Origin: Pseudomonadota bacterium
GTDB taxonomy: Bacteria > Pseudomonadota > Gammaproteobacteria > Burkholderiales > UBA9220
Direction: 5' to 3'
DNA: 64,000 nt
Assembly (NCBI GenBank): GCA_021845865.1
Contig: JAJZVC010000011.1
Span: forward strand, 405 to 64,404
Below are positions 47,059-50,687 of this stretch, piece by piece (the first letter of the stretch is position 1; every line of letters starts with the position of its first letter). The position numbers and the translations under genes are program-made. The notes beneath the pieces are model-generated. The model searched no databases and was not told the origin of the DNA. It was given only the letters and a program-made list of their open reading frames with translations.

Positions 47059-47877
47059 TTACAAGCCCAGGCGCTGGCCCAGGGTGGAGATCAGCCCCGC
47101 CTGGTTGAGGGTGTAGAAGTGCAGCCCCGGTGCACCGCCCCGCAGCAGCTTGTCGCACAGGTCGGTGACCACGTCCAGGCCGAAGGCTTGGAGGGCGGGC
47201 AGGTCGTTGGCCATGCCTTCCATGCGCTTGCGCATCCAGCGGGGAATCTCCGCCCCGCAGGCGTCGGAAAAGCGTGCCAGCTGGGTGAAGTTGGAGATGG
47301 GCATGATGCCCGGCACGATGGGGATGGACACTCCCCGCGCGGCGCACTCGTCGACGAAGCGGAAGTAGGCGTCGGCGTTGTAGAAGTACTGGGTGATGGC
47401 GGCGTCCGCCCCGGCCTTCGCCTTGGCGGCGAAGTTGTCCAGGTCCGCCACGGCGGAGGGGGCCTCGGGGTGGAACTCGGGATAGGCGGCCACCTCGATG
47501 TGGAACCAGTCGCCGTACTCGGCGCGGATGAAGGCCACCAGGTCGGCGGCGTAGCGGAAATCCCCCAGCTCCACCATGCCCGACGGGATATCGCCGCGCA
47601 GGGCGACGATGCGCTTGATGCCGTTGGCCTTGTACTCGTCCAGCAGGCTCTTGATGCTGTCGTGGGTGGCGGCGATGCAGGACAGGTGGGGGGCGGCCTG
47701 GTGGCCCTCCTTCTGTATCTCCAGCACCGTCTCCAGGGTGCGGTCCCGGGTGGAGCCGCCGGCGCCGAAGGTGACCGAGAAGAACTCCGGTTTCATCTGC
47801 GCCAGCTGTTGGCGGGTGGCCCGCAGCTTGTCGATGCCCTCCTGGGTCTTGGGGGGGAAGAATTCGAAACTGAGCAT
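47059..47877 (-). CDS. metF: 5,10-methylenetetrahydrofolate reductase
   Basis: SFEFFPPKT, SVTFGAGGST, ALRGD, AYPE.HP, ITQYF, HFYTLN; an alternative start at 47913 would translate the repeat array. Confidence 0.95.
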   Translation of the reverse strand: MLSFEFFPPKTQEGIDKLRATRQQLAQMKPEFFSVTFGAGGSTRDRTLETVLEIQKEGHQAAPHLSCIAATHDSIKSLLDEYKANGIKRIVALRGDIPSGMVELGDFRYAADLVAFIRAEYGDWFHIEVAAYPEFHPEAPSAVADLDNFAAKAKAGADAAITQYFYNADAYFRFVDECAARGVSIPIVPGIMPISNFTQLARFSDACGAEIPRWMRKRMEGMANDLPALQAFGLDVVTDLCDKLLRGGAPGLHFYTLNQAGLISTLGQRLGL

Positions 47878-47878
47878 A

Positions 47879-47906
47879 CGTGAGGCGTGAGGCGTGAGGC
47901 GTGAGG
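47879..47906. repeat. Tandem heptamer array (CGTGAGG)x4
   Basis: Four exact copies between the four-helix-bundle stop codon and the metF ATG. Confidence 0.9.
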
Positions 47907-47909
47907 GGG

Positions 47910-48272
47910 TCATTTCTCTACTCGCTTCCTCTGGTGGTTGATGAGGCCGCTAATCAGGGCAAATAGTCGTTCCAATTGTTCGGTGGGAACTTGGCTTGCT
48001 TCCAGATAGCCGATTTCTCGCGCCACGATCAACTGGGTCTCCAGCTCGCTCAAGGACCCTCGGGCGACGCCGAGAAAGTGGAGTAACTCCTTGTCCGTTA
48101 AACGCGCGCTGCCCTCGGCGATATTCGAGGGGACGGAGATTGCGCTACGGCGAATCTGGCTCGCCAAGCCATAAGTTTCGTGCGGGGGAAAGGAAGCGGT
48201 GAGGGCATAAACGTCCTTGACCAAGCCAATGGCAAGCTGCCAAGCGTCAAGGTCGTGGTGTTTCCGCCTCAC
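47910..48272 (-). CDS. Four-helix-bundle protein (TIGR02436 / 23S rRNA IVS-protein-like)
   Basis: HHDLDAWQ, FPPHETYGLASQIRRSAISVPSNIAEG, ARGSLSELETQL; codon usage less GC-biased than its neighbours. Confidence 0.88.
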   Translation of the reverse strand: MRRKHHDLDAWQLAIGLVKDVYALTASFPPHETYGLASQIRRSAISVPSNIAEGSARLTDKELLHFLGVARGSLSELETQLIVAREIGYLEASQVPTEQLERLFALISGLINHQRKRVEK

Positions 48273-48294
48273 CCCTCACCCCTTTCCCCTCACG
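48266..48294. repeat. Degenerate heptamer array (sCCTCAC)x4, inverted relative to 47879-47906
   Basis: GCCTCAC CCCTCAC CCCTTTC CCCTCAC G. Confidence 0.85.
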
Positions 48295-48297
48295 GCC

Positions 48298-49701
48298 TTA
48301 ATACCGGTAGTGGTTGGGCTTGTAGGGGCCGTCCTTGGGCACGCCGATGTACTTGGCCTGCGTGTCGGAGAGCTCCGTCAGGTGGACGCCGATCTTCTTC
48401 AGGTGCAGGCGGGCCACCTTTTCGTCCAGATGCTTGGGCAGGGTGTACACGCCCACCGGATACTTGTCGGCATGGTTGAACAGCTCGATCTGGGCGATGG
48501 TCTGGTTGCTGAAGGACGCGGACATCACGAAGGAGGGGTGGCCAGTGGCGCAGCCCAGGTTCACCAGGCGGCCCTTGGCGAGAACGATGATCTTTTTGCC
48601 GTCGGGGAAGATCACGTGGTCCACCTGGGGCTTGATCTCCTCCCACTGGTATTTTTCCACCGAGGCGATGTCGATTTCGGAGTCGAAGTGGCCGATGTTG
48701 CACACGATGGCCTCGTTCTTCATCTTCGCCATGTGGTCGTGGTTGATCACGTGCACGTTGCCGGTGGCGGTGACGAAGATGTCGCCGATGGCGGCCACCT
48801 CGTCCATGGTCACCACGCGGTAGCCTTCCATGGCCGCCTGCAGGGCGCAGATGGGGTCGATTTCGGTCACCATCACGGTGGCGCCCATGCCGCGGAAGGC
48901 CTGGGCGCAGCCCTTGCCCACGTCGCCGTAGCCCAGCACGACGCAGATCTTGCCCGCCACCATCACGTCGGTGGCGCGCTTGATGCCGTCCAGCAGGGAT
49001 TCGCGGCAGCCGTAGAGGTTGTCGAACTTGGACTTGGTCACCGAGTCGTTGACGTTGATGGCCGGGAATTTCAGGCGGCCTTCCTCGGCCATCTGGTAGA
49101 GGCGGTGAACGCCGGTGGTGGTTTCCTCGGTCACGCCCTTGATGTGCTTGATGCGCTCGGAGTACCAGCCGGGAGAGGTTTCCAGGCGTTTCTTGATGGC
49201 CGCGAACAGCACCCGTTCTTCCTCGCAGGTGGGGTTGGCGATGCAGGACGGGTCGCTTTCCGCGCGGGTGCCCAGGTGCAGCAGCAGGGTGGCGTCGCCG
49301 CCGTCGTCCAGGATCATGTTGGCGGGCTCGCCGGGCCACTCGAAGATGCGGTGGGTGTAATCCCAGTACTCTTCCAGGGACTCGCCCTTGTAGGCGAAGA
49401 CCGGGATGCCGTCGGCGGCGATGGCGGCGGCGGCGTGGTCCTGGGTCGAGTAGATGTTGCAGGAAGCCCAGCGTACCTGGGCGCCCAGGGCGGTGAGGGT
49501 TTCAATCAGCACCGCGGTCTGGATGGTCATGTGCAGGGAGCCGGCGATGCGCGCGCCCTTGAGGGGCTGGGAAGCGGCGAATTCCTCGCGGATGGCCATC
49601 AGGCCGGGCATTTCCACCTCGGCGATGGCGATTTCCTTGCGGCCCCAAGAGGCCAGGGACATGTCGGCGACTTTGTAGTCGGTGAATTTAGCGTCAGCCA
49701 C
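48298..49701 (-). CDS. ahcY: S-adenosylhomocysteine hydrolase
   Basis: [43 protein letters not shown]; GTG start with AGGAG RBS. Confidence 0.96.
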
Positions 49702-49898: not shown

Positions 49899-50687
49899 TT
49901 AATAGAGGCGTCTGCGCAGCAAATAATCATCTGGGAGTTTAATGATGTAGCTGCCGTCCTTTTTGAGGAGGGCAAGTTCCTTATCGTTCTTAGCAATCAG
50001 TAGCCCTTCATGAAGCGTGGTCCCCGTTTTATCTACGAGGAAGAAACAATTGCTCCACTTTGTCTTCTCATTCGGGAAGCAACCTTTTTCACGGAAGACT
50101 TTAATTTTTTCAAGCGCCATGGAATTTCCTTTGGAATAAGCCGCCATCGGGAGCAACCACCAAAGAAGCGCGATGAGTACTGTGGTCGTTAAGAGAAAAA
50201 GAATGCTATAAAACAGAACCCATACAATGCCAATGACTTTTGTAAGATCGTTGTTTTTCCAATGCAATCTGGATAATAAAGTTTCCAGAATTTTTAGAAT
50301 ATTGGAAAGAATCGGGTAAGGTGGCCTCTTGAGCGCTTTAACGAGCCAATAAAGGCCGCCGACGCATAAGCAAATGGTAAGAATAACCCAATAGACAAGA
50401 GGGGGAGACAACAGTCGATTAATCGTTTTTGCGGCAACTTCCCCTAGGCTAAGCAAAAAAAGACCGACAGCATGATACGAAAATACGTAGATGTCAGGGG
50501 TCGCAAGAGGAAATCCGTCAGCCGCTACACCAAAAGCTTCCATATACCCTTGGTAATAGCTTAGGCCAAGTAAATAGGCTCCAGGGGTAAGGATACCAAT
50601 AAGGGCAGCGGAAATTGCAAATAGATTCTTCCACTTTTTTGCTTTTGGCTGTTCCTCAGATGGCTGTGGCATTGGGTTGTTAGGCAT
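49899..50687 (-). CDS. AT-rich hypothetical membrane protein
   Basis: 262-aa ORF with several hydrophobic segments; markedly lower GC than the flanks; no family recognised. Confidence 0.6.
   Translation of the reverse strand: MPNNPMPQPSEEQPKAKKWKNLFAISAALIGILTPGAYLLGLSYYQGYMEAFGVAADGFPLATPDIYVFSYHAVGLFLLSLGEVAAKTINRLLSPPLVYWVILTICLCVGGLYWLVKALKRPPYPILSNILKILETLLSRLHWKNNDLTKVIGIVWVLFYSILFLLTTTVLIALLWWLLPMAAYSKGNSMALEKIKVFREKGCFPNEKTKWSNCFFLVDKTGTTLHEGLLIAKNDKELALLKKDGSYIIKLPDDYLLRRRLY

Follow-up and report, generated by a model that had tools for sequence, protein, structure and literature searches.

The window analyzed here, a stretch of 64,000 nucleotides (nt) from a Pseudomonadota bacterium of the order Burkholderiales (contig JAJZVC010000011.1, positions 405 to 64,404), carries on its minus strand, between ahcY and metF, a 120-residue four-helix-bundle gene of the family PF05635/TIGR02436 that is flanked by two complementary arrays of heptamers. 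We propose that gene and arrays together form a promoter-less selfish cassette, similar to the open reading frame (ORF)-bearing intervening sequences of 23S rRNA and co-oriented in a protein-coding operon, and that this cassette has captured the start of metF; of the explanations considered, this is the one that we hold to be probable. The cassette is a well-formed member of a widespread class, and a variant of the rRNA intervening sequence that resides in a protein-coding operon. A first-pass annotation of the window had described the gene and the arrays that bracket it, an observation that is confirmed on the sequence, and had interpreted the unit as a self-contained intervening or selfish element, an interpretation that is partly supported overall.

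Along the minus strand, the order is ahcY TAA, GGC, the 5′ arm, the 120-residue ORF, TGA, CCC, the 3′ arm, a single T and the metF ATG. The upstream host gene (48298..49701), which we take to be ahcY (adenosylhomocysteinase) from the first annotation and our own reading of the sequence, shares 73–97% identity with the gene that precedes this junction in relatives, and its TAA (48300-48298) lies 3 nt before the 5′ arm. This arm (48267..48294) is made of four G-rich heptamers, CGTGAGG, GGAAAGG, GGTGAGG and GGTGAGG, and holds Shine-Dalgarno-like GAGG and AAGG motifs as well as, within its last heptamer unit, the GTG start of the cassette gene (47910..48272). The 3′ arm (47879..47906), (CCTCACG)x4, is C-rich, perfectly regular and complementary to the 5′ arm. 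Tandem Repeats Finder assigns both arrays a period of 7, with 4.0 copies and 100% matches at 47879-47906 and 3.9 copies and 80% at 48267-48293. The downstream gene, presumably metF (methylenetetrahydrofolate reductase) as it was first named, occupies 47059..47877 in its short form, the ATG of which (47877) is 1 nt past the array and has no Shine-Dalgarno-like motif ahead of it. The codon usage of the cassette gene differs from that of the host, as had been claimed: its GC content at third codon positions (GC3) is 0.678, versus 0.915 for ahcY, 0.938 for metF and 0.865 ± 0.052 for the 51 long ORFs of the window (lowest 0.693).

First, we evaluated whether this design is typical of the family. 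PF05635 was found in 98 genomes of an order sample of 401, and 119 order loci were fetched (four from the unpublished genome G030), of which 113 were usable. As judged by an inverted repeat between the gene flanks that exceeds the 95th percentile of 226 shifted pseudo-gene controls, inverted arrays are present in 101 of the 113 loci, and 82 exceed the control maximum. A wider set of 80 loci, taken from named records of about a dozen phyla and gathered with a single cassette protein as query, yielded 75 usable loci, 58 of which passed the same test. The shifted controls rule out a chance origin of the arrays in both sets. Most of the family genes collected are flanked by inverted arrays, and the earlier suggestion that gene and inverted heptamer arms form a self-contained unit typical of the family is borne out within the order and across phyla. 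The arm period is 7 in 90 of the 101 order loci (8 in 8, 9 in 2 and 5 in 1) and in 54 of the 58 multi-phylum loci (8 in 4). The heptamer unit is particular to each cassette copy, and both arms of one copy are mutually complementary. Units of 9 bases occur in arms of up to ~130 nt (L041:1400-1500 and 1880-2010; L059) and 8-base units elsewhere, so that the period can depart from 7.

Eight loci in four genomes sit inside large-subunit (LSU) rRNA and also have heptamer arms, in one case with GACAGAN units. The occurrence of arrays and of the four-helix-bundle gene in true 23S inserts of the order indicates that the design is common to the operon cassette and the rRNA intervening sequences, in line with the connection to 23S inserts drawn in the first-pass annotation. 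According to a study of Coxiella burnetii (Warrier 2016, PMC4990558), where the Leptospira work is also cited, the intervening sequence of that species lies in 23S helix 45 with an S23p ORF, and its GACAGAT heptamers form a 28-bp stem that RNase III cuts mid-stem. The cassettes resemble the intervening sequences described there in (i) the protein family, (ii) terminal inverted repeats that give a stem of ~28 bp, (iii) heptamers before the ORF with a Shine-Dalgarno-like motif, (iv) a GC content lower than that of the host and (v) a sporadic distribution. Unlike rRNA intervening sequences, the cassette of the window is located between two protein-coding genes and not in a 23S or 16S helix; it would be translated in relay with its neighbours, its 3′ arm lies in the downstream frame, and its excision would harm metF.

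Second, the orientation of the cassettes suggests that they depend on host expression. Of 106 cassettes, 76 have the gene co-directional with both of its neighbours, 10 have one neighbour opposite and none has both opposite, the rest being unclear; between the upstream stop codon and the 5′ arm there are, in the median, 3 nt. A G-rich 5′ arm is seen in 101 cassettes and a C-rich one in 2, and this arm contains a Shine-Dalgarno-like core in 90 of 106; the more regular arm is the 3′ arm in 60 cassettes and the 5′ arm in 30 (Wilcoxon 2.7e-5). In 75 of 76 cassettes, the gene has a lower GC3 than its flanks (mean difference -0.23), which points to a foreign origin. In the mechanism that we propose, the cassette would be transcribed by read-through from the host promoter, and a ribosome that terminates at the ahcY stop would melt the stem, making the Shine-Dalgarno-like motif and the GTG start of the cassette gene accessible. 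MetF would in turn be read from an ATG that overlaps the TGA of the cassette, through the 3′ array. The downstream host gene would come to depend on the cassette (‘operon capture’), shielding the cassette from loss.

Third, we analyzed the start of metF. The ATG that overlaps the cassette TGA (ATGA; 47911..47913, minus strand) is in frame with metF across the 3′ array, which therefore lies within the metF reading frame, and the ORF 47059-47913 (284 residues) is metF read from this start, giving MTPSRLTPHASR-MLSFEFF. An in-frame start before the 3′ array is present in 10 of the 11 ahcY-cassette-metF loci and is the sole start in 8, while the metF start of G030 alone lies only after the array. 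The ATGA overlap with the cassette stop is found in 5 of the 11, including the window (ATG 47913-47911), and the array is read in one and the same frame throughout these loci, with peptides such as MNASRLTPNASR and MTPSRLTPHASR. An in-frame start ahead of the array implies that the array is coding sequence. On this account the ATG at 47911..47913 is, from the sequence, the probable coupled start of MetF, and two earlier statements have to be revised: the metF ATG first named is probably not the main start, and the array, as coding sequence, cannot simply be looped or cut out. Among the 85 cassettes scored, 17 have a downstream start only before the array, 9 have one on each side and 54 have one only after it; in 5, none was found. 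The 54 after-array starts have a Shine-Dalgarno-like core in 8 cases, a count made without a matched control, and an arm-to-start distance of 7 nt or less in 23; the scarcity of such cores and the short gaps indicate that the cassette replaced the translation signals of the downstream gene.

Fourth, the cassette is not fixed at this position. We found the ahcY-metF junction without a cassette in two same-genus and two same-family genomes; in the same-genus genome G001 it holds an 86-nt spacer and MetF starts MKKPIL, an N-terminus common to the MetF of other cassette-free genomes, and in a contig from an activated-sludge metagenome 88 letters replace 47875-48299. From these comparisons we conclude that the cassette took the place of the native spacer between ahcY and metF, together with the ribosome-binding site and the first codons of metF. 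A clean insertion of a transposon or a miniature inverted-repeat transposable element is rejected, since the empty sites hold an unrelated spacer of 86–88 nt and native metF codons, and no target-site duplication was seen there. The first-pass annotation had reckoned that removal of the unit would leave ~4 nt, as expected for a clean insertion; the arithmetic holds (GGC plus T), but the expectation does not. Because the native junction is not recoverable by deletion, both states must exchange by recombination through the flanking genes. The metagenome contig differs from the window at 7 of 475 letters on the metF side (98.5% identical) and at 27 of 207 on the ahcY side, which suggests a recombination break at the junction. 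Spread between genomes would occur by recombination through the conserved flanking genes, and spread within a genome through the repeat arms.

The recurrence of the cassettes at operon junctions, also anticipated in the first-pass annotation, is evident from nine sites that, labelled by short motifs, hold 65 of the 119 cassettes: upstream of dnaJ (15), rmlA (13), metF (11), guaA (6), pilC (4), ychF (3), ruvC (3) and nrdR (2), and inside 23S rRNA (8). All 11 metF-site cassettes have ahcY upstream, and the order ahcY-cassette-metF is found in 11 genomes of at least eight families. In a quick IQ-TREE phylogeny with Shimodaira-Hasegawa-like approximate likelihood ratio (SH-aLRT) support, the proteins cluster by site, with 26 label changes versus 59.6 for shuffled labels and none of 200 shuffles as low, although kin share labels. 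The well-supported branches require three or more origins for the metF site, and one of these rests on the unpublished genome G030, where the cassette has a different 3′ boundary. The proteins nearest to that of the window come from two other families (G234, 77%; G354, 72%); identities to the nearest relatives are 77%, 72% and 66% for the cassette, and 75%, 75% and 71% for MetF.

The protein matches PF05635 with 116 bits (cut-off 33.8) and TIGR02436 with 110.3 bits (cut-off 24), and PDB entry 2GSC, the solved structure of XCC0516, at E 1.7e-28. The AlphaFold model is an up-down bundle of four helices (predicted local distance difference test score, pLDDT, 96.7), and compares with 2GSC at a template-modelling (TM) score of 0.90 and 44–45% identity; 2RLD, another solved member of the family, was also matched. 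Residues Q39, R42, N50, E53, G54, G72, S73 and E76 are invariant among 35 sequences of the order, and the conserved polar core Q..R.......N..EG ... GS..E is present in the cassette protein. The ratio of nonsynonymous to synonymous substitution rates (dN/dS) is 0.08 between the cassette gene and its nearest relative, and 0.05–0.22 in 10 of 14 pairs with estimable dS; the protein is under strong purifying selection, yet its foreign GC3 is kept.

The fold is that of the Avd proteins of diversity-generating retroelements (DGRs), as first annotated: the predicted model aligns with Avd (4DWL; see also the DGR ribonucleoprotein 8UBE) at TM 0.78, there is a weak PHROG match to ‘Avd protein of DGR’ (E 5.5e-5), and the family likeness to Avd has been stated before (PMC10053308). 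Unlike DGR Avd, to which it is ~12% identical in sequence, the protein is not accompanied by template or variable repeats. Templating of the repeats by a reverse transcriptase is rejected, since no PF00078 match turned up in the genome (91% complete). This Avd-like protein is probably oligomeric and would most likely bind the heptamer arrays.

The alternative that survives best, although we consider it unlikely, is the view of the first-pass annotation taken strictly, an mRNA intervening sequence in which the arrays pair and RNase III cuts the stem, thereby freeing the cassette mRNA and separating the host cistrons as in 23S rRNA. This explanation draws on the match to the real 23S inserts of the order, on the mid-stem cut in the 28-bp heptamer stem of Coxiella (PMC4990558), on the presence of an RNase III gene (rnc) in the genome, and on the stability of the stem. 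The two arms agree at 25 of 31 aligned positions, and their RNA duplex has a predicted energy of -49.2 kcal/mol, versus -33.3 ± 3.8 when one arm is shuffled 300 times, the best of these shuffles reaching -46.2. In a transcript context of 631 nt, the inter-arm pair probabilities sum to 24.8, with ~25 pairs near probability 1, and the minimum-free-energy fold of the 431-nt unit pairs both arrays (-168.8 kcal/mol, z -3.55, equalled by none of 100 shuffles). The claim that the complementary arrays could form an imperfect stem is thereby sustained.

Three points speak against routine cutting of this stem. Among the arm mismatches of 102 cassettes, G-U type on the sense strand accounts for 80 and the opposite type for 110, next to 151 transversions; there is no G-U bias, and no sign of selection for RNA pairing. 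Ribosomes would, moreover, melt both arms. Finally, where the sole metF start lies upstream of the 3′ array, as in 8 of the 11 loci, a cut would part metF from its start, so that routine excision is unlikely at this locus. As a sequence feature, the stem is genuine. Under our proposal of a selfish cassette with a captured metF start, the arms would pair into a stem of ~25 bp that, in untranslated RNA such as rRNA, would serve as an RNase III site, and in the ahcY-metF mRNA would more likely be a brake on translation or processing than a signal for excision.

A second alternative, to which we give slightly less credence, places the mobility at the DNA level: in a system resembling repetitive extragenic palindromes and their associated tyrosine transposases (REP/RAYT), or a foldback element, the arrays would be the element ends, and the protein would recognise its own heptamer and promote copying, conversion or spread of cassettes and gene-less hairpins. 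The genome of the window (G000; 2.69 Mb, 84 contigs) has a single PF05635 gene, which is against such a system, but contains no fewer than 28 hairpins without a gene, from two heptamer families, which favour it. A strict scan returned 18 hairpins including the cassette (17 gene-less), all with the G-rich arm first, and 11 looser gene-less ones were added. The arrays are, consequently, not the private parts of the gene cassette that they were first thought to be. In 28 of 29 scored hairpins (cassette included) the neighbouring genes are co-directional, the 29th being unclear, and the stop codon is usually 13 nt or less from the arm. By our reading of the flanking gene termini, the hairpin junctions presumably include cbbL-cbbS, nifH-nifD, rpoB-rpoC, accB-accC, sdhA-sdhB, iscS-iscU, thiS-thiG, yajC-secD and leuD-leuB.

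The first hairpin family has the form (NGTGAGG)n-short loop-(CCTCACN)n, and the second, with at least 12 genome copies, (GGATGAA)n-loop-(TTCATCC)n (for example L242:320-420, L243:315-430 and L244:300-410, on contigs C57, C67 and C48). Several loops of the second family have the motif GTCCTGCGGAC in common, which indicates that these hairpins are copies of one element. Their GGATGAA arms have no cognate four-helix-bundle gene in G000, and flank one in the sister species G002 (L040), which also favours a DNA-level system, as does a hairpin (G000:C55:10135-10207) that keeps the inner edges of the cassette including the first ORF codons. A contig joint in a DNA sequencing run, from 47908 to 48257 with 5 letters between, most likely derives from this paralogous hairpin and not from a cassette-less allele. 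No heptamer hairpins were found at the dnaK-dnaJ, rmlA, ychF and ruvC junctions of G000; guaA was not found by motif.

Comparison between genomes bears on the DNA-level explanation in both directions. At rpoB-rpoC, upstream of dcd and at accB-accC, the orthologous junctions of sister species hold hairpins that belong to different heptamer families, each genome using its own families repeatedly; on the other hand, the hairpin positions are kept between species at all three junctions tested. With kinship uncorrected, PF05635 is present in 39 of 52 GTGAGG-array-rich genomes versus 59 of 349 others, and 15 of 15 genomes whose cassettes have GTGAGG-type arms are array-rich, versus 20 of 62 with other arm units. 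The missing G-U bias is also in keeping with an action on DNA. These points are countered by the 13 array-rich genomes without the gene, by a protein without known catalytic motif, by the lack of a target-site duplication at the empty site, and by a search of phages and plasmids in which no phage and 33 of 72,556 plasmids, mostly cyanobacterial, matched the family. Genomes G115, G321 and G077 have 49–132 matches to three tandem GTGAGGN units and no PF05635 match; arrays can abound without the gene.

In REP/RAYT systems (REPtrons), inverted copies of a palindromic repeat surround a gene, and further copies without the gene are scattered over intergenic sites of the same genome. The cassette is similar in that its repeat also occurs across the genome in gene-less form (17 strict and 11 looser hairpins), and differs in that the flanked gene is of family PF05635 and not a Y1 (HUH) transposase, and in its tandem heptamer arms, the unit of which differs by copy. 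Identity with REP/RAYT is rejected, since the sole Y1_Tnp match of the genome (G000:C83) has no heptamer arrays nearby.

A bolder combination, which we regard as speculative and a little less credible than either alternative above, is a transposase-less mobile system in which an Avd-like oligomer would recognise its own heptamer, with one 7-base unit per subunit, and drive cassettes and gene-less hairpins by copying or conversion into operon junctions throughout the genome. The cassette would then become indispensable by capturing the translation start of the downstream essential gene, and 7-nt slippage could switch that gene on or off. If true, such a protein-plus-hairpin system would account at once for the heptamer repeats of bacteria and for rRNA intervening sequences.

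That the gene is instead a domesticated methyl-cycle regulator, a host factor acting on the repeats to adjust the expression of ahcY and metF, would fit the strong purifying selection and the recurrent ahcY-cassette-metF order but is highly improbable, given that the same cassette lies upstream of dnaJ, rmlA, guaA, pilC, ychF, ruvC and nrdR and inside 23S rRNA, is absent from same-genus and same-family relatives, and has a foreign GC3.

Returning to the promoter-less cassette with a captured metF start, several points weigh against it. We infer transcription, translational coupling and any processing of the cassette; among 20 sequencing runs listed, the RNA-labelled ones held 5–6% of the sampled words, and none was shown to contain this organism. 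The window has a second ATG directly after the array, so that MetF need not use the coupled start, and the Shine-Dalgarno count on the after-array starts is, as stated, uncontrolled. Array binding by the protein is putative, and a quarter of the array-rich genomes (13/52) do without the gene. No clear dip marked a recombination tract in the comparison with G001, and the similar identities of cassette and MetF would also be compatible with a lineage that, taken as a whole, was inherited vertically over a long time and lost repeatedly.

No function is known for the very large family PF05635, and both rRNA intervening sequences and the heptamer repeats of bacteria have long gone unexplained; as one kind of element, all three would become testable by ordinary genetics. 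In the published literature, supplements aside, we found heptamers described only for the Coxiella intervening sequence, and no cassette outside rRNA. The element is found mostly in core-operon junctions (here, by our reading, cbbLS, nifHD, rpoBC, accBC, sdhAB, iscSU and ahcY-metF) and can become the translation start of the next gene. PADLOC matched no defence family to the cassette.

Short tandemly repeated repetitive (STRR) heptamers are repeats of heterocystous cyanobacteria. They are similar to the arrays in being intergenic tandem heptamers but, as far as literature listings show, are not tied to a protein or to an inverted-arm cassette. On a plasmid of Anabaena sp. 90, ~300 nt of GGTGACA/GGGAACA precede a family gene between cas6 and cas4 (L232:20-300 and 820-860), and the complementary array lies inside the annotated cas4 start. 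Where metF, rmlA, ruvC or cas4 follows such a cassette, its annotated start is probably wrong.

Small genes other than the cassette are also found at the ahcY-metF junction. In the same-genus genome G002 it holds an insert of ~870 nt with two small ORFs (L005:2000-2870), by eye a nucleotidyltransferase/HEPN-type pair, and in many other families of the order a gene for a membrane protein of ~110 residues (L010, L015, L016, L018, L019, L021 and L031); such inserts in many families suggest that the junction is a general hot spot. At G000:C52:12050-12290, the first ~40 nt of ruvC, a recurrent cassette site, are duplicated ~140 nt upstream with unrelated sequence between, which may be a scar. In the window itself, the 262-residue ORF just upstream of ahcY (49899-50687, minus strand) is membrane-like, appears rich in AT-coded residues, and is possibly also foreign.
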